Source: a virus (Duplodnaviria; Caudoviricetes). From it: 35,449 nucleotides of DNA. The position numbers and the translations under genes were made by a program. The stretch lies in IMG/VR virus record IMGVR_UViG_3300029171_000165, positions 1 through 35,449 of that record, one strand, 5' to 3'. Positions 6,737 through 24,482 of the stretch are shown piece after piece; position 1 is the stretch's first letter, and every line of letters begins with the position of its first letter. The notes under the pieces are model-generated. The model was given only the letters and a program-made list of their open reading frames with translations, was not told where the DNA came from and did no database searches.

Positions 6737-7085
6737 ACCCAAAATTCCCCCGCTCGATGCGTTCAAGCCCGGTATCAAACCCACCGGCTTCAATATCCTT
6801 GTCGGCCTTCCGTTCAAGGAAGTAACCACGGCGGGCGGTATCATCATCCCCGACAATGTAAGCGACCGCGACCGGTTGAGCGAAGTGCGGGGCCGCATCC
6901 TTGCGATGTCGCCAGCCTGCTTTGATTTTGCCGACTTCCCCGAAAGCGACAAGCCCAAGGTGGGCGATGCAGTGGTGTTTGCGAAATATGCCGGTGTCGT
7001 GACCGAAGGCGAAGACGGCAGCGAATGCAGATTAATTTTAGACAAAGATGTGTGCGCCGTCATACAGGAGGACGACAATGACTGA
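6726..7085 (+). CDS. groES: GroES/Cpn10-like co-chaperonin
   Basis: IKPTGFNILV..EVTTAGGIIIPD..KVGDAVVFAKYAG..RLILDKDVCAVI; SD GGAG before ATG 6723/6726. Confidence 0.9.
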   Translation: MLTKPKIPPLDAFKPGIKPTGFNILVGLPFKEVTTAGGIIIPDNVSDRDRLSEVRGRILAMSPACFDFADFPESDKPKVGDAVVFAKYAGVVTEGEDGSECRLILDKDVCAVIQEDDND

Positions 7086-7599
7086 CTGGTGGACCGTAGA
7101 GGAAGCGCCCGGTTATGAAATATCGGACAACGGCGACATTCGGAGATACGGCAAAATTTTAAAGCCCGCGCCGAATACGCAGGGATATTTGCACGTCACG
7201 CTTTGCCATAAGGGAAGCAGAAAGACGCGGACTATTCATTCAATAGTTTGCAAGGCTTTCCACGGCCCAAGGCCCACTCCTTCACACGATGCTGCGCATT
7301 GGGACGGCGATAAGACAAATAACCGCGCGAACAATCTCCGATGGGCCACAAAAGCCGAAAATCAAGCGGACCGCATAAGACACGGGACCGTCCTGACGGG
7401 TGATAAGCATCCTTCTCGCTTAAAGCCTGAGTGCTTGCGGAGAGGCGAAAGACATCCCATGCGTAAGCTAAGTGCTGCGGATGTTATTGCTATACGGACG
7501 CTGCCCATAAAGCAGGTTGAAGCTGCAAAGATGTTCAAAATAGCACAATCCAATGTCAGCGACATCAGGCGCGGCATTATATGGAGGGAAGTAGCATGA
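7078..7599 (+). CDS. NUMOD4-like + HNH homing endonuclease with C-terminal HTH
   Basis: PGYEISDNGDIR, IHSIVCKAFHG, AAHWDGDKTNNRANNLRWATKAEN, KLSAADVIAIR. Confidence 0.9.
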   Translation: MTDWWTVEEAPGYEISDNGDIRRYGKILKPAPNTQGYLHVTLCHKGSRKTRTIHSIVCKAFHGPRPTPSHDAAHWDGDKTNNRANNLRWATKAENQADRIRHGTVLTGDKHPSRLKPECLRRGERHPMRKLSAADVIAIRTLPIKQVEAAKMFKIAQSNVSDIRRGIIWREVA

Positions 7600-8396
7600 A
7601 CCCTGAAGTAAACACAGCCGAAGATGCGGCAGTAGATGTCGCAATCATCGACGCGCAACAGCATGATGCCGATGTCAAAGCCTATGTGCCAACCCCGTTC
7701 GACGATCTGGCCAAGGAAATGGGCTGGTTCCCCCCCGATGAATATAACGGCGATGCTGACAAGTGGCGCAGCGCAGAAGATTATATCAAGCACGGGGTGC
7801 AATCCACAAAGTCGCTAAAACGCGATTTGAAGGCTGTCAAGGACACTGCCGACCGTCTGGCGCGCACAAGTGCCACACTGACAGCCAAAGCGCTTGAAGA
7901 CCAACGGGCTGAACTTGAAGCCCGTCATGACCAAGCTGTTGAGGATGGCGACAAGGAAGCCGCCCGCGCAGCTGCAAAAGACTTGGCGCGGCTGGACGAT
8001 GCACCTGACTTGGGCGATGTCAAAACGATGGTGAAGGAATTTACCGAACGCAACGACTGGTATACCACACACGAAAAGGCGACGGACCTTGCTGCTATGG
8101 TATCAAAGAAACTTGCCAACCAAGGCAAGGACGTATCGGAACAGCTTGAAGCCGCAGAAGAAGCCGTGCGCGAACGATTCCCCGAACTGTTCGAAAAGCC
8201 CAAGAAAGCCCCCGCCGTGCATGGCAACCAGTCGCGTGTTGCGGTCCCTGCCAGCAGGGAAAAAGGCGTCGCCGATCTGCCAGCAGAAGCCCGCCGCGCG
8301 GGGGAAGATTACGTCAAGATGATTAATGCTAGGATGCCAAATGCGAAATATACGCTAAAGGATTTTTCCAAAACTTATTGGGAAGAAAATTCATGA
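7596..8396 (+). CDS. Probable scaffolding protein
   Basis: Acidic coiled-coil-rich 266 aa between portal/groES and capsid genes; ATGA overlap; SD GGAGG. Confidence 0.65.
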   Translation: MNPEVNTAEDAAVDVAIIDAQQHDADVKAYVPTPFDDLAKEMGWFPPDEYNGDADKWRSAEDYIKHGVQSTKSLKRDLKAVKDTADRLARTSATLTAKALEDQRAELEARHDQAVEDGDKEAARAAAKDLARLDDAPDLGDVKTMVKEFTERNDWYTTHEKATDLAAMVSKKLANQGKDVSEQLEAAEEAVRERFPELFEKPKKAPAVHGNQSRVAVPASREKGVADLPAEARRAGEDYVKMINARMPNAKYTLKDFSKTYWEENS

Positions 8397-9043
8397 GGGC
8401 CGGCATAGGAACACGCATTGGTCGCCTAAAGGTCATCGCTATGGCCCCCGCGCGCGGCAAAAACCATTATCGCGTCTGTGAGTGCGCTTGTGGGACCGTG
8501 AAGGAATATGCGGTGTCTAACCTGTTCCAGCGGACAGTAAGTTGCGGTTGCCACAACAAGGAAAACCAATCCAAGCGTTGTACGACGCACGGCATGACAG
8601 GCAGGCCGGAATATGTTGCATGGCAAAACGCCAAGAACAGATGTTACAAGTCGAACCACCCCGAATACAAAAACTACGGCGCTCGCGGAATCGGCATGTG
8701 CGTTGAGTGGCGCAATGATTTTAGCAAGTTTTATGAAGATATGGGGCCGCGCCCAAAGGGCCTGAGTTTGGAGCGCGAAGATGTAAACGGGGATTATTGC
8801 CCCGAAAATTGTGTTTGGGCAGATTGGAAAACTCAAGCCAACAATACACGTCTCTCTCCAAAAAACAGGATGGTTTCTATAAATGGAACAGTTGTTAGCT
8901 TTTCGGACGCCATGAACGCAAACAACATAGCTTGGTCGCAGGTCCAGCAGAGAATCCAGAATGGTTGGTCGCCAGAAGACGCGCTGACCAAGCCCATTCG
9001 GCACATTAAAAAACGATCCACCCACCGTGCCGAGAACGGCTAA
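8393..9043 (+). CDS. HNH-type (His-Me finger) endonuclease
   Basis: GTRIGRLKV, CECACG, SCGC, YGARGIGMC, LEREDVNGDYCPENCVWA..QANNTR; ATGA overlap with scaffold stop. Confidence 0.85.
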   Translation: MRAGIGTRIGRLKVIAMAPARGKNHYRVCECACGTVKEYAVSNLFQRTVSCGCHNKENQSKRCTTHGMTGRPEYVAWQNAKNRCYKSNHPEYKNYGARGIGMCVEWRNDFSKFYEDMGPRPKGLSLEREDVNGDYCPENCVWADWKTQANNTRLSPKNRMVSINGTVVSFSDAMNANNIAWSQVQQRIQNGWSPEDALTKPIRHIKKRSTHRAENG

Positions 9044-17407: not shown

Positions 17408-18025
17408 TTGCGCCACGATGCTAATCTAAAATCATGTAGGGCTTGCAACGAAGCTAAGCCAGTCATTGCATTCGCATTCAGCCCGCGTCATAGGGACCGC
17501 TTGAGTTCAATGTGCAGGCCTTGCACCAATGGCAAGCAACGAGAATTTAGGTCGCGCAACCCCGAGGATACCGCGCTCAAGAGCAGAGAATATCGCTCTA
17601 AAAATATTGAAAAAGCCCGCGCCTATTCTAAAAAATGGGGCGAGAACAATAAGGAATCTCGACGCGGCACATTGGTCCGTCGCCGTGCCGCTGACCCAAA
17701 GGGCGAATGGTCAAAAACAACATTGGCTAATTGTAAGGCTCGTGCATTAAAAGCAAAAATTCCATTTTCGATAACATCTGCTGATATTTTGCCTCTTTGC
17801 GTTGATTTTTGCCCAGCCTTAGGATTTAAACTAAACTATCCAGTTGAATGCATTTCTGGGGCAGGACCAATGGCAGACAGCCCTAGCTTGGATAGGATTA
17901 TCCCGTCATTAGGATATACCGTCGGTAATATTGTCGTTATCTCAAAAATGGCAAATTGCATAAAACAAGACGCTAATGCTTATCAAATTGCAGCCGTAGC
18001 TAAGTGGCTGGAGGGCTTGGAGTGA
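17408..18025 (+). CDS. His-Me finger/HNH-like endonuclease with N-terminal CxxC-CxxC
   Basis: CRAC..CRPC, CPALG, SPSLDRIIPSLGYTVGNIVVISKMANCIK; visibly more AT-rich than its neighbours. Confidence 0.75.
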   Translation: MRHDANLKSCRACNEAKPVIAFAFSPRHRDRLSSMCRPCTNGKQREFRSRNPEDTALKSREYRSKNIEKARAYSKKWGENNKESRRGTLVRRRAADPKGEWSKTTLANCKARALKAKIPFSITSADILPLCVDFCPALGFKLNYPVECISGAGPMADSPSLDRIIPSLGYTVGNIVVISKMANCIKQDANAYQIAAVAKWLEGLE

Positions 18026-18561
18026 GGAACTTTTTACGCATCGCCGAGGGAATAGAAACAATGCCTGTTTTGGCATCCCTTGCTGCGCGTCCAGACTTGT
18101 GGAACGCAAACCCTTTACGCACGGAATATCCTGACACCCCGCACTGCGAAGCCGACGACATCTGGCTACGCTTCAACGAAATGCCGGATGACCCTGCGGA
18201 CGTAATCAACGACATTCAAACGCACCCTTATCCCGCATGGCATGAATTGCCCGTCAAAGATATGGTGCTAAACCTTATGCGCGCAGTCGGTGGAACGCAA
18301 CTAGGCCGCGTCCTGATTACACGCCTTGCACCCGGAGCGCAGATTTACCCGCATAAGGACGAAGGTGCTCCTGCAACATTCTTTACCCGCTATCAGATAA
18401 TGCTGCAATGCAATCCCGGCGTCCAATTCAACTGCGGTGATGAAAGCGTATCGATGAAAAGCGGCGACGTGTGGTGGTTTGAAAATGGCGAAACGCATTC
18501 GGTCATCAACAACAGCAATGACGATAGGCTGGTTATAATCGCGGATATACGGACGTGCTGA
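18022..18561 (+). CDS. Aspartyl/asparaginyl beta-hydroxylase family 2OG-Fe(II) oxygenase
   Basis: LGRVLITRLAPGAQIYPHKD...GDVWWFEN..THSVINNS..DRLVIIADI (HxD...H...R); GTG 18022 in GTGA overlap with SD GGAGG. Confidence 0.85.
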   Translation: MRNFLRIAEGIETMPVLASLAARPDLWNANPLRTEYPDTPHCEADDIWLRFNEMPDDPADVINDIQTHPYPAWHELPVKDMVLNLMRAVGGTQLGRVLITRLAPGAQIYPHKDEGAPATFFTRYQIMLQCNPGVQFNCGDESVSMKSGDVWWFENGETHSVINNSNDDRLVIIADIRTC

Positions 18562-19013
18562 CGGCCCATATCGAAAGCCTCACCGAACGGTTAGAGGAAA
18601 TGAAGCCGTTCTTTCCCCTTCATTGGGAAGAACTTGCGCTTAACCAAAAACAAGTCCCGCTAGACCCGCAATACGACATCTACCTTGACCGTGACGCAGC
18701 GGGGCAGGTGTTGCTTGTGACGCTTCGCAATGCTGGCGAGATGGTGGGTTATTTTGTTGGATTCGTCGCGCCGGGTCTGCACTATCAAACATGCCTCACC
18801 CTAACGATGGATATTTTCTACGTATTGCCCGAACATCGCGGTTCGGGTGGTGGATTTGTATTATTCGCAGCGGTTGAAAAGGAAGCCAAAAGGCGGGGAG
18901 TTGAACGTATGTTTGTCGGTAGCAAATGCCATAAGGATGCGTCATTCCTTTTTGAGAAATTGGGGTACGAAGAAGTGGAGCGATATTACAGCGCATATTG
19001 GGGTAAAAACTGA
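18555..19013 (+). CDS. GNAT-family acetyltransferase-fold protein
   Basis: DIFYVLPEHRGSGGG acetyl-CoA motif and LFEKLGY. Confidence 0.85.
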   Translation: MLTAHIESLTERLEEMKPFFPLHWEELALNQKQVPLDPQYDIYLDRDAAGQVLLVTLRNAGEMVGYFVGFVAPGLHYQTCLTLTMDIFYVLPEHRGSGGGFVLFAAVEKEAKRRGVERMFVGSKCHKDASFLFEKLGYEEVERYYSAYWGKN

Positions 19014-19651
19014 TGGCGTTTCTCAACCTTACTGGCCATCGCTTTGGACGACTGACTGTGACTGGCTTGTCGGAGCGTTCCAGTAGCAAGCGCACATATT
19101 GGAATTGCGTCTGTGATTGCGGCGGAAAGACCGAACCCCGCGCAGATGCCCTTCGCAATAAGGACGGCCCAGGTTCTGTTCGGTCTTGCGGTTGCCTTCA
19201 AAAAGAAAAAGCCGCCGCGTCTGGCAGGGCGTCACGCAGGCACGATTATTGTGGAACGCGAATTTATGATTCGTGGTGCCACATGATCGGCAGGTGCTAC
19301 AATCCCAAAAACGGGCGCTATGCGGATTATGGCGGGCGCGGTGTTACCGTCTGCGATAGGTGGCGTGAAAACTTTCTGAATTTCTTGGAAGATATGGGGG
19401 AAATGCCAGAAGGCATGACCATCGAACGCCAAGACAATGACTTGCCGTATAGCAAGGAAAATTGCGTGTGGGCGGACTACACGCAGCAAAATCGTAATCG
19501 GCGCAATTCGATTTACGTAGCAACCGAGATTGGGGCTTTCCCTTTACAGGAGTATGCAGAAATGAGGGGCTTAACTTACTATAAAGCCTTGCGTTTGGTT
19601 AATAACGGAGTTGTGCCATCGTGCCGTCCGTTTGCGGAGTCAAGACCATAG
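19013..19651 (+). CDS. HNH-type (His-Me finger) endonuclease, paralogue of 8393-9043
   Basis: NLTGHRFGRLTV, WNCVCDCG, SCGC, YGGRGVTVC, IERQDNDLPYSKENCVWA..QNRNRR. Confidence 0.85.
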   Translation: MAFLNLTGHRFGRLTVTGLSERSSSKRTYWNCVCDCGGKTEPRADALRNKDGPGSVRSCGCLQKEKAAASGRASRRHDYCGTRIYDSWCHMIGRCYNPKNGRYADYGGRGVTVCDRWRENFLNFLEDMGEMPEGMTIERQDNDLPYSKENCVWADYTQQNRNRRNSIYVATEIGAFPLQEYAEMRGLTYYKALRLVNNGVVPSCRPFAESRP

Positions 19652-20352
19652 TCGCGGTCGCCATCGTCGGTTCCGCCGTTGTCGGCGGGGCTGTGTCCAT
19701 GAACGCTTCCAAAAAGGCGCGCAAGGCTGCGAAGAACGCGCAGACGACAAACAACGCGCTAGAAGAACGCATCCGCGCCGACAACCAGGCTGCGTTGCAG
19801 CCCTACATCAACGCTGGCCTTGGGCCGACTGAGGCCATTGCCGCGCTGAACGGATTTGGCGGCGCAGACGCACAGGCAAAACAGCGCGCCGCGTTTGAGC
19901 AATTTCGCAGCAATACAGGCTACGCAGACCAGTTTGCAGAAGGCTCGCGGGCGGTCGATACGGCTTATGCCAGCAAAGGGCTACTGGATAGTGGCGCGGC
20001 GCGGAAGGCACAAATCCGCTACGGCACGATGCAGGCGGATAAATCATTCGGTGATTATTATTCGCGGCTGGTTGGACAGCAGCAGATCGGGAGCGGGGCA
20101 GCGGGTGCATTGACCGGAGTAAACAACACATTCGTCAACGGCGTGACTGGCAACAACAATGCCTATGCAGGCGCGGCAGGCAATGCGGCGCTTTCAAACG
20201 CGGCAAACATCAACGGCATCATCGGTGCTGGCTTGTCGGCATATTCCTACAACAAGGGCATGAGTTCGTCTTATGGCACGGCTAATGTGGGTGGCGGTTC
20301 AGCAAGCTATGCGCCAGCGCCTAATTTCAACAACTGGAATGGACGCTACTAA
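19621..20352 (+). CDS. DNA ejection/transfer protein (P22 gp7-like)
   Basis: Hydrophobic Gly/Ala N-terminus, then KKARKAAK, LQPYINAG, AYASKGLLDSGA. Start ambiguous (GTG 19621 or ATA 19648). Confidence 0.7.
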   Translation: MPSVCGVKTIVAVAIVGSAVVGGAVSMNASKKARKAAKNAQTTNNALEERIRADNQAALQPYINAGLGPTEAIAALNGFGGADAQAKQRAAFEQFRSNTGYADQFAEGSRAVDTAYASKGLLDSGAARKAQIRYGTMQADKSFGDYYSRLVGQQQIGSGAAGALTGVNNTFVNGVTGNNNAYAGAAGNAALSNAANINGIIGAGLSAYSYNKGMSSSYGTANVGGGSASYAPAPNFNNWNGRY

Positions 20353-21206
20353 TGGTAAATTGGGCGTTAAATCAAATCCCCGACTTCACGCAAGCCGCGT
20401 TAGCTGCGGAGGATGCAGGCCGTCGCCGTGGCCGTCAAAAGCGCACGGAAGGCGTGTTGGCAACATTCGGCCAAGACCCTGATGCTGCTATCGAACAGGC
20501 TTACGCTTTCGATCCCGAACTAGGCGATAAGCTATCATCGCGCCGCCGTGACAGGCAGGTGCAGGAACTTATCCCGCAAGTGATGGGCGGGGGGATGCCG
20601 CAGGGTATGCCACAAGATGGTGGTTTTCAGATGCCTGCACAGAACGGCGTCCAGTTGAACAGCGAAGCGTTGCAAAAACTATTCCTGATAGACCCCGAAA
20701 AGGCAAACCAGATTAGCGCGTTTGCATCGAAGGCGCGCAAGGAAGAACTTGACCGCGTGGGCGAGCATGGGAAACTGAAGGCTAAGGCAGCGTTTTATCT
20801 TTCCCGCTTTCCGGCAGGGGAAGAACGCCAGCGGGCATTCCAGCAAATGAAGCCGCAGCTTATGCAAAGCGGTTTTAGTGAGCAGGACTTGGCGGGTGCA
20901 CGGCTTGATGACCAATCGCTAAAGATGGACCAAGCTTTTGGAATGTCGGTTGCGGAACTGGCAGACGAAGCCCGGGTTAAGTGGGTGCCAGTCGGTGAGC
21001 GTGGCTTGGCTGCATTTGACGCGCAAGGCAATCCGGTCGGCGCTGACAATCCTTTCAATGCAGGCACACAAAACGCAGCAGGTGGCGACCTAGAAGCACA
21101 AGCGGCTGCGGCTATCGCGGCGGGTGCTGACCCTGTTGCTGTCCGCGCACGTATGCAGGAGTTAGGAGGTCAGGGCGCAAGCCCTGCCACCTTTCCGGGG
21201 CAGTAA
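20352..21206 (+). CDS. Putative internal virion/ejection protein (gp20-like position)
   Basis: 284 aa Gln/Ala-rich helical protein; TAATG coupling; synteny. Confidence 0.65.
   Translation: MVNWALNQIPDFTQAALAAEDAGRRRGRQKRTEGVLATFGQDPDAAIEQAYAFDPELGDKLSSRRRDRQVQELIPQVMGGGMPQGMPQDGGFQMPAQNGVQLNSEALQKLFLIDPEKANQISAFASKARKEELDRVGEHGKLKAKAAFYLSRFPAGEERQRAFQQMKPQLMQSGFSEQDLAGARLDDQSLKMDQAFGMSVAELADEARVKWVPVGERGLAAFDAQGNPVGADNPFNAGTQNAAGGDLEAQAAAAIAAGADPVAVRARMQELGGQGASPATFPGQ
21164..21197 (+). other. Candidate programmed +1 frameshift signal: AGGAGGT - CAGGGC GCAA GCCCTG - CCACC - TTT CCG
   Basis: Perfect SD with no canonical start at usual spacing; GNRA hairpin; in-frame TTT whose +1 codon TTC is in the transglycosylase frame. 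Confidence 0.55.
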
Positions 21207-21207
21207 G

Positions 21208-21573
21208 TTGGACGCGCTTACAGCAAGCGTTGAAAGCGGCAATCGTGATTATGCCAATGGCCGTGCTGTGACTTCGCCAAAGGGCGCAAAGTTTGCAATG
21301 CAGGTGATGCCTGAAACAGCGCGTGACCCCGGTTTTGGGCTACGCCCTGCTAACCCTAATAATGCAGCGGATATGAACCGCCTTGGCCGTGAATATCGCG
21401 CAGAAATGCAATCACGCTATGGTGGCGATTTACGCAAGATGTGGGCGGCATACAACGCGGGACCGGGCGCGGTTGACAAGGCCATAAAAGAGCATGGCTC
21501 AAACTGGCTTGCTAATATGCCTGCCGAAACGCGCAACTATGTCCGCAAACTTATATCAAAGGCACAACGATAA
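21208..21573 (+). CDS. Lytic transglycosylase (SLT) domain, possibly made as a frameshift fusion to the upstream protein
   Basis: VESGN, SPKGAKFAMQVMPETA, AAYNAGPG, ETRNYV. Only a TTG start with weak SD; frame is open back to 21166. Confidence 0.9.
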   Translation: MDALTASVESGNRDYANGRAVTSPKGAKFAMQVMPETARDPGFGLRPANPNNAADMNRLGREYRAEMQSRYGGDLRKMWAAYNAGPGAVDKAIKEHGSNWLANMPAETRNYVRKLISKAQR

Positions 21574-24482
21574 TGGGACCGTTTGACGACCTTATTCCCA
21601 CAGGAAAAGCCCCTGCACAGCGCGGATATATTCCGGGCATTGCGGACCCGTATAAAGCAAGCGAAGAAGCGCGCAAAATCGAGGAGGAGCGCAGGAAGGC
21701 CGCAAAGGAAGCCCGTGACGCTATTAAAGACGCTGCGTCTGATGAAAAAGATGCAATCATTATCGCTAAGGGAAAGAAGGAACTTGAAGATGGTGATGTT
21801 GCGACTGCTGTTGGTGAAGAACGGAAAGCTTCATCATTCTTACTGCGCGCTCTAGGCTCTAATGACAGTTACGAAGCGCAAGACATAGGGCCACGCTCAC
21901 TTGCCGGGCAGGCATTTTCAGACATTGCTCCTAATGCTCTTAATAGCCTTCCTTCATGGGCCGGAAATAGCCCCGAAAGACAAGTTGCGGATACGAACCA
22001 AGATGAATTTATAGCAGCATCGCTTCGGCAGGATTCGGGTGCGGCTATCCCGCCTGAAGAAATGACACGCCAGCGACGGATTTACTTCCCTATGCCCGGT
22101 GATGGTCCTGAAGTTATAGCGGCCAAAAAGCAAGCCCGATTGCGCGCCATTGAGGGTTTGAAGCAATCTTCTGGTAAACTTCTTGATGAAACCGAGAAGC
22201 GTTATCAGGCGATGAAAACAGACACGCAGCTTATGGCGCTTGGTATCACCATTGACCCCGCCCAAATGCAGGACGGCGTGATTATCAATCCTGCACCTAA
22301 CACCCCGAACATGACGGGTGGCGTTCCTACAGGCACAGACGTCCGGCTAGGTATTGAAGGTGATGCAGGCGGGTTTGACCGCACGGCGTATCTTGCCAAC
22401 ATCGGACTGGACCCGAACAAGGAAGCTACATTGATGGCTGGCCTTAACGCGATAACGGGCAACCCTGAATTAACCGCCGATGATATGATAAAGGTCTATG
22501 CGGACCTTGGCGCGCCTTTGCCTAATGCAGCAGATTTTCAGCAGCAACTTGAATATGCCCGCAAGGGCTATCGCTTTGGTCCGGTCGATAGTTCAGTTGC
22601 GGAAGCCGACTATAATAAACAGGTGGCAGATGAAGCCGCTGCGATGGATGCTGGACTAGGTGAGGCTGGTTTAAGCGAATTGTCACAGCAAGGCATGATG
22701 ATTGGTCTTGGCGATGAGGCGGCGGGCGTCGGTCGCGGGCTTTCAAGGCTCCTACAGGGCGAAAACCCTATCGAGGGTTACAGACTAGGCCGCGATGCCC
22801 AAAGGCTGCGTCTGGACCAAGCGCGGGAGCGTGAAGGCGTATTGGGAACGGCTGCTGAAATAGCGGGCGGGGGTGCATCGTTTGGCACGGCTGCCTTAAC
22901 ATCGACCGTCCCACAAACAACGCGCCAGTTAGTCAATTCCGGTGCGCTGCAAGGTGCTTTGTCTGGCTTTGGCTATGGCGAAGGCGCAGGCGGTAGTGCT
23001 GTTGGAACGGTGGCCGGTGCCGCATTAGGCGCGGGCGCTACGTTTGGCCTGACCAAAGGCGCGCAGCTTGTCGGCTCGCGTATCGGTCGCAAGGCAACTG
23101 CTGAGGCGGTTGATACTGCGCGGGCGGCTAATGAGGAAGGTTTAGTCCTGCCCCGTGCGATACTTGACCCCAAGGCCGGTGTAAGGGCTACTGCGCTCGA
23201 TAGCACTATGGCAGGCCGTCCGGTTATCGACAGGACCATGAAGGGCGTTGCTGACGCTGTGGCAGGCCGTGCGGGCAATCTATCGGCGGGTAATGTTATT
23301 CCTGATGGCGAAAACGTGGGCAATCTTGTTCGCACCGCTGCGGAACGGTCAATCAAAGACAGCGGAAAAGCCGCTACCCGTGCTTACGACAAGGCTGAAA
23401 ACCTAGCAGGTAACGCCAAGGTCGCACCTACCAATGCGCTTGCTTCTATCAAGGGTGCTATTGGAGATTTGACGGAAACGGCAGGATTAAACAGCCCTGA
23501 AATAAACTTTCTGAAAACGCTGGAAACGGACTTTTCAAAAGACTTGTCGGTAGGTGCATTGCGCCGCGCTCGCACAAAGATGCGTAAGCTTATCAGTAAA
23601 GGCGAGTTGACCTTTGGCGAAAGCGAAGCGCGGGTTTTGGGCATCATGGACGCTGCGGCAGATGATATTCGTGCAGGGCTTTCATCGCAGGGTAAAGCAG
23701 ATGCAGCCCGTGCGTTTGACGTTGCTGACAAGGGCTACCGTGAGCGGATGGACTTTATCAACGGCACTTTGCAGAAACTTATCGGGCGCAGGCAGGATAA
23801 TCTTGCAGGCGAAACTATTGCCAGAAAACTAACCGCCATGCGCGGCAAGGGTGGCGACGCGGAAGGGCTTCGCAAATTCTTTAATACGCTTGCACCGAAT
23901 GAAAAGGCGGACATTGCTGCGACCGTAGCCGATAGTTTGGGCAAGAATACGAAGGGCGAATTTTCGCTGGCCTATCTTGCAAAGAATATCGAAAACATAC
24001 CTGCCAGCACAAGGGCAACGATATTCGGCGCGGATGGTGCAAAATCACTGGCCAACCTGAAAACCATTGCAACGGCATTTGACAAGGTAAAGCGCAATAC
24101 CAGCAACACGGGCTTGGGCAATGACTGGCGTTCTATTCTAACAAGTGTTGGCGTCGGTGGTGGCGGCACGGCTGTCCTTGGCGGTGGGGTTAGTGGGACT
24201 GCCCTTGCGGCTGGCGTGGCTGCTGGTGGCGCAAAGCTTGGTCGTGACTATATTTCTGCCCGGATGGCAATGTCGCCCAAGTTTCAACGCTGGCTTTCAA
24301 AGGCAGTAATTGCACGGACACCTCAACAGATTGCAGACAGTATGCGTGGGCTAAACCGTATCGCGGCGACTGAGCCTGCTATCGGCGGCGAAGTAAACGC
24401 GTTGAGCAATTATCTATTGCAGGCGGCGAACGACACTGGACCTATGGCGGCGGCGGCAAATAGTGACCGGAAAGAACCTTGA
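21573..24482 (+). CDS. Large internal virion/DNA ejection protein (gp16-like)
   Basis: 969 aa Ala/Gly-rich; FDDLIP N-terminus, LRQDSGAAIP..YFPMPGD; Gly-rich hydrophobic segments. Confidence 0.7.
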   Translation: MGPFDDLIPTGKAPAQRGYIPGIADPYKASEEARKIEEERRKAAKEARDAIKDAASDEKDAIIIAKGKKELEDGDVATAVGEERKASSFLLRALGSNDSYEAQDIGPRSLAGQAFSDIAPNALNSLPSWAGNSPERQVADTNQDEFIAASLRQDSGAAIPPEEMTRQRRIYFPMPGDGPEVIAAKKQARLRAIEGLKQSSGKLLDETEKRYQAMKTDTQLMALGITIDPAQMQDGVIINPAPNTPNMTGGVPTGTDVRLGIEGDAGGFDRTAYLANIGLDPNKEATLMAGLNAITGNPELTADDMIKVYADLGAPLPNAADFQQQLEYARKGYRFGPVDSSVAEADYNKQVADEAAAMDAGLGEAGLSELSQQGMMIGLGDEAAGVGRGLSRLLQGENPIEGYRLGRDAQRLRLDQAREREGVLGTAAEIAGGGASFGTAALTSTVPQTTRQLVNSGALQGALSGFGYGEGAGGSAVGTVAGAALGAGATFGLTKGAQLVGSRIGRKATAEAVDTARAANEEGLVLPRAILDPKAGVRATALDSTMAGRPVIDRTMKGVADAVAGRAGNLSAGNVIPDGENVGNLVRTAAERSIKDSGKAATRAYDKAENLAGNAKVAPTNALASIKGAIGDLTETAGLNSPEINFLKTLETDFSKDLSVGALRRARTKMRKLISKGELTFGESEARVLGIMDAAADDIRAGLSSQGKADAARAFDVADKGYRERMDFINGTLQKLIGRRQDNLAGETIARKLTAMRGKGGDAEGLRKFFNTLAPNEKADIAATVADSLGKNTKGEFSLAYLAKNIENIPASTRATIFGADGAKSLANLKTIATAFDKVKRNTSNTGLGNDWRSILTSVGVGGGGTAVLGGGVSGTALAAGVAAGGAKLGRDYISARMAMSPKFQRWLSKAVIARTPQQIADSMRGLNRIAATEPAIGGEVNALSNYLLQAANDTGPMAAAANSDRKEP

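Follow-up and report, generated by a model that had tools for sequence, protein, structure and literature searches.

The question raised by this locus is how a predicted peptidoglycan-cutting domain comes to be translated when its reading frame, open from position 21166, overlaps the end of the preceding gene and holds TTG 21208 as its sole start codon. The locus lies in the window, by which we mean the whole 35,449-nt stretch analysed (virus record IMGVR_UViG_3300029171_000165, linear, estimated completeness 81%). Gene order is P22-like, running from terminase, portal, capsid and head closure through an acetyltransferase, a gp7-like ejection gene and the gene for a 284-aa protein to the transglycosylase (SLT) frame, a 969-aa gene, a pectate-lyase-like tailspike candidate and an endolysin. 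On the plus strand, the first ejection-protein gene occupies the P22 gp7 position (19621–20352; assigned from phrog_598, DNA ejection, E 3.4e-15, and context) and the second ejection-like gene follows at 20352–21206. A third, large ejection-like gene (21573–24482) is recognised from context and from 42.9% identity over 54% to Pam1 gp16, which the supplement of PMC9382816 marks as detected by mass spectrometry. Its start overlaps the SLT stop as TAATG, and this type of overlap is found in 62 of 96 distinct junctions. The structural module also contains four HNH or endonuclease VII-like genes (7048–7599, 8378–9043, 17408–18025 and 19013–19651), one of which is inserted directly 5′ of the first ejection gene. 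Between the tail-hub and ejection genes, an Asp/Asn β-hydroxylase (cupin) gene (18004–19013) lies beside the GNAT acetyltransferase gene, the two being possible modifiers of virion proteins.

The 284-aa product of the second gene, predicted to be mostly helical, is likely a DNA-ejection protein. It has no Pfam or PHROG match, and a fold search with its low-confidence helical structure model returned nothing in the PDB and one viral protein at E 8e-4. The ejection role is hence inferred from synteny and from homology to Pam1 gp14 (HHalign 97.9%, E 5e-13). The gene takes the position of P22 gp20, after the head-closure gene and between the gp7-like and the large third ejection gene, and the Pam1 homologue is virion-associated: the supplement of PMC9382816 lists gp14 as a virion protein by mass spectrometry and labels it P22 DNA/protein translocase (HHpred 0.88). 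Within a search range of 156–497 aa, 17 relatives of the 284-aa protein were found, all of 246–305 aa and all sharing a C-terminal pattern of Gly-Gly, 7–8 residues, Phe and then 0–4 residues. A small two-helix module (DLEAQA...ADP...RARMQEL; window 21087–21162, also in P0012–P0017 and L013) precedes this C-terminus directly and is common to otherwise divergent upstream proteins, other short modules standing in its place elsewhere. A pattern derived from the protein motif ARMQELGG gave 11 loci in viral contigs, of which ten were unrelated and one was already in our set.

Near the end of the 284-aa gene, an internal Shine-Dalgarno-like (SD) AGGAGGT (21164–21170; core GGAGG at 21165–21169, read in frame 0 as GGA GGT) is followed by the 6-bp hairpin CAGGGC-GCAA-GCCCTG with a GCAA loop (21171–21186), recognised by sequence and folding, whose homologous stems of 7–8 bp covary. 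A 5-nt spacer of conserved length, CCACC (21187–21191), contributes the would-be E-site codon with its last three bases and leads to the likely +1 shift site UUU_C (21192–21195), where Phe to Phe re-pairing could occur. TTT 21192–21194 is in the frame of ORF 20352–21206, which ends at TAA 21204–21206, the fourth codon after TTT, while TTC 21193–21195 is in the frame of the SLT domain (21193–21573; 126 codons from Phe; PF01464, E 1.9e-10; putative catalytic Glu 21232–21234). The original prediction took this arrangement for a candidate +1 recoding element appending the SLT domain to an ejection protein. Its positions for SD, hairpin, spacer, both Phe codons and the stop were all right on re-reading the sequence, as was the ES motif at SLT residues 9–10, and a +1 reading is computed to give a 406-aa fusion in which ...GASPATF is joined to R. 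We propose that these elements, which closely precede the stop codon of the second ejection-like gene, likely form a cassette for programmed +1 ribosomal frameshifting.

Within the window the individual signals are of unequal weight. The hairpin is modest when compared with shuffles (z -1.2 to -2.2 in three stretches containing it), and the stem reaches z -2.05 (p 0.05) against a synonymous-codon null. The full architecture (GGAGG, a stem of at least 6 pairs, 4–6 nt, TTTY) has one match in the window against 0.02 expected per simulated window, and 754 kb of chromosomal SLT loci contained no match. No Rfam covariance model matched window 20800–21800 at E<=10. A search of the window's own genome with a model of the cassette gave nothing at E<=0.001, the window scoring 26 bits (E 0.016).

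Homologues of the appended domain allow the frame relation to be examined independently of the cassette. The domain is a predicted lytic transglycosylase (PF01464, 40.7 bits against a cut-off of 21.3). It matches phrog_342, "internal virion protein with endolysin domain", has 537 homologues at E<=1e-20, and shows no variation at E9 and S10 across 75 sequences. The protein-selected set comprised 240 loci, of which 162 were examined together with the window and L003; 78 distant chromosomal SLTs (78 of the 80 genome-contig loci L107–L184) were kept outside the junction count and served as background. There were 111 distinct loci scoring at least 85 bits with the catalytic Glu aligned. In 59 of these, termed short-SLT loci, the domain ends its ORF within 135 residues. 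Of the 59, 55 contain GGAGG, a hairpin and a short spacer before TTTY; a long upstream ORF reads their TTT in frame, and the SLT domain follows in +1. The other four are three loci of inverted frame arrangement, discussed below, and L053, a 1-kb contig with hairpin and TTTC and lacking the SD. TTTY thus occupies the cassette position in 59/59 short-SLT loci. By contrast, in the remaining 52 loci the SLT domain forms an internal or N-terminal part of a longer in-frame protein, and none of them has the cassette at the domain. Six loci (L031, L056, L077, L080, L189 and L211) encode the same SLT family with its own ATG and no cassette, the domain standing alone or at the N-terminus of a longer protein.

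The SD core in the 55 loci is exact GGAGG in 53, with one GGAGA and one GGGGG, and the distance from its start to TTT is 30 nt in 44 loci, 27 nt in seven and 33 nt in four. Across the 53 distinct cores the spacer is 5 nt in 46 and 4–6 nt in all, the base 5′ of TTT is never A or T (0/53), and the fourth base of TTTY is C in 44. GGA and TTT hardly vary at all, contrary to what codon usage would predict. The stem, of 6–9 bp, is better than a synonymous-codon null in 47/53 cores, and two forms dominate: GGAGG with 8 bp and a tetraloop (25), and GGAGG-T with 7 bp and a 5-nt loop (16). Two-sided base changes occur at 8/8 pairs in one stem alignment and 5/7 in the other. Slid registers are only 20–68% paired, although the alignments were split by predicted fold and contain related sequences, so that percent paired leans towards structure. 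GGAGG, gap and stem add up to 13 in 43/53 cores. A frame-0 stop follows within five codons in 83/89 standard junctions, compared with 10/89 in the unused frame. Bypass or -2 slippage was considered and set aside, there being no conserved matching codon or base 5′ of TTT. The comparison proposed at the outset, which looked for GGAGG, a covarying hairpin, TTTY and a hydrolase-like ORF downstream, thus found all of them conserved and supports the recoding element. The +1 frameshift reading, with a P-site re-pairing site in the upstream frame and nucleotide conservation beyond that of the protein, is strongly supported by these comparisons.

Two DNA patterns built from cores of the SLT set identified 63 viral loci (52 distinct), in partial overlap with that set. 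Because the patterns contain GGAGG and TTTY, these loci test only the frames and the neighbouring genes. All 52 have TTT in the reading frame of an ORF spanning 150 aa or more, and a +1 ORF of at least 75 aa was present in 49, the others being two inverted loci and one cut by a contig end. The downstream domains of 52 loci (51 of these and L013) were assigned to SLT (23), peptidase M15 (15) and no credible Pfam family (14), two of the SLT and three of the M15 matches lying below the curated cut-off. Three of the Pfam-less domains match phrog_873, and two of these also match phrog_7182, "tail injection transglycosylase". Taking all 96 distinct junctions together, the upstream proteins fall into 75 clusters at 50% identity and the appended domains into five, with 62, 19, 6, 6 and 3 members, so that the cassette precedes four other hydrolase-like domain clusters besides SLT. 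One of these, the Pam1-type cluster, has no family match; judging from its motif, it may be M15-like. Related phage sequences, about a hundred in all, carry the cassette where a virion gene ends. As the cassette is shared by 75 upstream clusters and five domain clusters, the RNA signal is more constant than either protein it joins.

The expectation that the domain always occupies the +1 frame is contradicted by five inverted loci (L222, L251, L049, L286 and L288), where it lies in frame 0. In these the +1 frame stops after 2, 2, 2, 4 and 1 codons respectively, i.e. within four codons in all five, against a background of 10/89. The cassette persists in all four loci whose sequence covers it; in L049 the SD lies beyond the contig. 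L222, L251 and L049 may represent one event; L286 and L288 carry other domain families. By simple arithmetic, an indel would have put the old stop in the -1 frame, not in +1. Two forms, long and short, would thus be made from the cassette with the enzyme in either frame, and the occurrence of both polarities suggests that shift efficiency is not tiny. The stems of L222 (one mismatch) and L251 (5 bp) are weaker than in standard loci, which perhaps tunes the share of short product.

Two cultured phages are informative. In Pam1 (L329) an intact cassette ends gene 14, and the +1 ORF extends for 103 aa from the shift site (ON014753 11204–11515), where the annotation has gp15, 49 aa from an internal ATG. 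The virion mass spectrometry table in the supplement of PMC9382816 marks ORF14 and leaves the ORF15 stub unmarked; as the junction and the first half of the domain are unannotated, the missing mark is weak but real counter-evidence. Gene 41 of Sphingopyxis phage VSN-002 is a 390-aa in-frame fusion with a Pam1-type domain, in which a relic hairpin (7/8 bp) and the spacer remain while GGAGG and TTTY are lost. The recorded host of Pam1 is cyanobacterial, but its ejection module resembles those of the window, the Sphingopyxis phage and Sphingomonadaceae prophage loci, which makes host range or module exchange a point of interest.

Further searches defined the distribution. True matches were obtained in 2/151 Sphingomonadaceae genomes, with few candidates scored per genome. 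Among the seven model matches, L337–L339 and L342 were false and L340 lacked the GGAGG/TTTY arrangement. L337–L339 (G101, G012, G121), from three Sphingomonadaceae chromosomes, share a long and nearly identical hairpin with TTTCGCTGTT after it, and appear terminator-like. No cassette was found in the stretches examined of nine other P22-like phages (Pan3, ctnlZ23, RHph_N2, EBPR1/2, P26218, ctkAd229, phiAX1, PBR31 and DSL-LC05), nor in Caulobacter phage Jess A, whose SLT domain lies within a long protein. A short-DNA BLAST of the cassette against cultured phages gave chance-level mycobacteriophage matches only. Among sequencing runs, none of RNA was listed as containing the locus, and the two DNA runs that contain it in full were left out of the count, since the window may derive from them.

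We consider it very probable that the +1 shift is real, and probable, if a degree less so, that SD and hairpin together stimulate it. In the proposed mechanism, the tRNA-Phe carrying the nascent peptide would leave UUU and pair with UUY. When UUU reaches the P site, refolding of the hairpin two bases behind the E-site codon would restore contact between GGAGG and the anti-SD of 16S rRNA. The stem and the helix formed by the SD may then stack, as the near-constant sum of 13 suggests, and the resulting bulky duplex would pull the mRNA by one base and favour forward re-pairing of tRNA-Phe. One gene would thereby yield two proteins, of which only the longer has the domain predicted to cut peptidoglycan, and the two isoforms might co-assemble in the ejected conduit such that only some subunits bear the enzyme when the conduit crosses the wall. 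A more specific version, to which we give slightly less than an even chance, is that SD:anti-SD helix and refolded hairpin form a composite 5′ stimulator, a duplex of fixed 13-bp length that lies five bases 5′ of the P site, which drives high-level +1 slippage in the absence of a stop or hungry codon and is efficient enough for either polarity; it would serve as a portable stoichiometry switch setting how many conduit subunits carry an interchangeable wall hydrolase.

Individual parts of this mechanism have precedent. UUU_Y is described as +1 shift-prone in bacteria in PMC5009743, whose passages on YopN-TyeA and on ICE msi172-msi171 (FseA) report the same slippery tetranucleotide or a UUU site, in other genes and with no SD-hairpin stimulator mentioned there. 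At the prfB (RF2) site, with its SD and CUU_UGA, an internal SD likewise precedes the place of the +1 shift and the P-site tRNA re-pairs, and 10/55 cassette loci share a stop directly after UUU. In geometry, however, the cassette differs from prfB, as the looped-out spacing of 5 nt plus the helix width exceeds the 3 nt given for prfB and for +1 stimulation by an SD in PMC5009743; linearly, the cassette SD lies 22–28 nt from the P codon with the hairpin between. Furthermore, the shift codon of the cassette specifies Phe where prfB has Leu, the A site is occupied by a sense codon at most loci (CCG in the window), and the role would be structural, not autoregulatory. Stable hairpins placed just 5′ of the E site also raise +1 shifting, as described for the SARS-derived 6BPGC in yeast (PMC3639245) and for H1 on E. 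coli 70S ribosomes, where an engineered upstream hairpin provided about 60% of the SD's +1 stimulation (PMC6321510). These were engineered placements at CUU sites used as alternatives to an SD, and according to PMC6321510 the 70S effect required a stop codon with RF2 absent, whereas the cassette is a natural, conserved SD-plus-hairpin at UUU_Y whose A-site stop is confined to the 10/55 loci above.

The best-placed alternative, though still improbable, accepts the +1 shift and has GGAGG act without the anti-SD, as a strand of a longer stem over UUUY, a protein site or the code for a Gly-Gly nascent peptide, the hairpin alone exerting the pull. The original prediction had noted that GGAGGT could pair with ACCTTT to extend the stem over SD and shift site, and such extension is indeed predicted, with at least three GGAGG bases paired within the mRNA in 39/53 folds. 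In the GGAGG-T form (alignment A5, columns 11–12 with 32–33), G-C and U-G pairs are possible between the final two bases of the SD and the opening two of the spacer in 19/19 and 18/19 sequences; such pairing would rival the anti-SD and leave just the E-site codon single-stranded. These lower pairs are G-U rich and never change on both sides, unlike the upper stem, and there is therefore no support for selection of the extended stem, which may nonetheless hide the SD on idle mRNA. In addition, UUU presumably cannot pair intramolecularly while in the P site. A peptide effect finds a parallel in the Trp-Gly effect suggested for the msi172-msi171 UUU shift in PMC5009743, but the codon kept is specifically GGA (52/53 distinct cores, although GGA makes up only 11.6% of the Gly codons of these genes), and the GGAGA core of L242 encodes Gly-Asp. 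Hence, a shift stimulated by SD and hairpin together remains the preferred reading.

That the hydrolase is instead a separate small protein, initiated through a split ribosome-binding site or by re-initiation, is very unlikely. The model for a split site is T4 gene 38/25: in gene 38, a looped-out hairpin shortens the SD-AUG distance from 22 to 5 nt (PMC3014915), nearly the cassette geometry of SD, hairpin and 5 nt. Those genes initiate at AUG, however, whereas the cassette has an ORF-internal UUU in the corresponding position, and just 2/55 loci have a +1 start codon at the spacing reached by looping out, the other 53 having none there. The cassette thus works like both prfB and the T4 split sites, and departs from each in a defining feature. 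Gene callers have given many homologues their own starts, and SD-like pairing is found at some start upstream of the catalytic Glu in 24/55 loci, ten of these starts lying inside the stem; the SD-supported starts are scattered, though, over 17 different offsets. No start leaving the domain intact exists in 5/55 loci, and 26 more have SD-less starts only. For the window, TTG 21208 has SD-like pairing of -5.0 kcal/mol, which is weak support, and the matching residue is a non-start codon in 43/55. A separate start also leaves the invariant TTTY unexplained, and because the inverted loci hold the enzyme in frame 0 and stop just after the cassette in +1, initiation cannot explain the cassette. A minor stand-alone enzyme product in some phages is possible alongside the predicted fusion.

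We regard as more improbable still a frame change by RNA polymerase slippage at the T run, or a hairpin with U's acting as intrinsic terminator or attenuator. A GC-rich hairpin followed by T's is present, and the covariance model also caught the terminator-like hairpin of three chromosomes. Polymerase slippage generally needs longer runs, and intrinsic terminators have a U-tract of about 7 nt directly after the stem. In contrast, the cassette has only 3–4 T's, set 4–6 nt from the stem behind a G/C-rich spacer, with neither T nor A ever before TTT and with C predominant after it. This explanation also leaves GGAGG and the frame coupling unexplained, and a needed gene lies downstream. Finally, sequencing error or a decayed fusion gene, for which in-frame fusions such as VSN-002 might speak, is refuted by conservation: 89 distinct junctions share the break, it spans 75 clusters of upstream proteins (50% identity), and a cultured phage has it too. 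The window junction recurs in the independent contig L001 and is therefore no assembly slip.

A share of a virion protein gaining a mobile C-terminal domain recalls the Ig-like domains added by frameshift to phage capsid and tail proteins (T3, A2, PSA, A118), and in both cases in-frame and frameshifted forms occur. The cassette differs in that its host is an internal ejection-like protein, its domains are predicted peptidoglycan hydrolases, and one fixed signal is used in both polarities. Among ejection proteins, T7 gp16 carries a muralytic-type wall hydrolase domain. A literature search, with subscription journals mostly outside its scope, returned no description of an SD-hairpin-UUUY frameshift arrangement.

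If the proposed reading is true, the cassette would be a natural bacterial +1 signal that unites two stimulators so far studied apart, the internal SD and the refolding 5′ hairpin. With about a hundred variants found in nature, some of inverted polarity, and one decayed relic, the way in which duplexes at the mRNA exit shift the reading frame would become open to direct test, and the cultured phages Pam1 and VSN-002 are suited to such tests. For annotation, it would mean that Pam1 gp15 and other small genes labelled "SLT" or "hypothetical" are C-terminal domains. For the phages themselves, the arrangement points to a dosing of the hydrolase during genome ejection.
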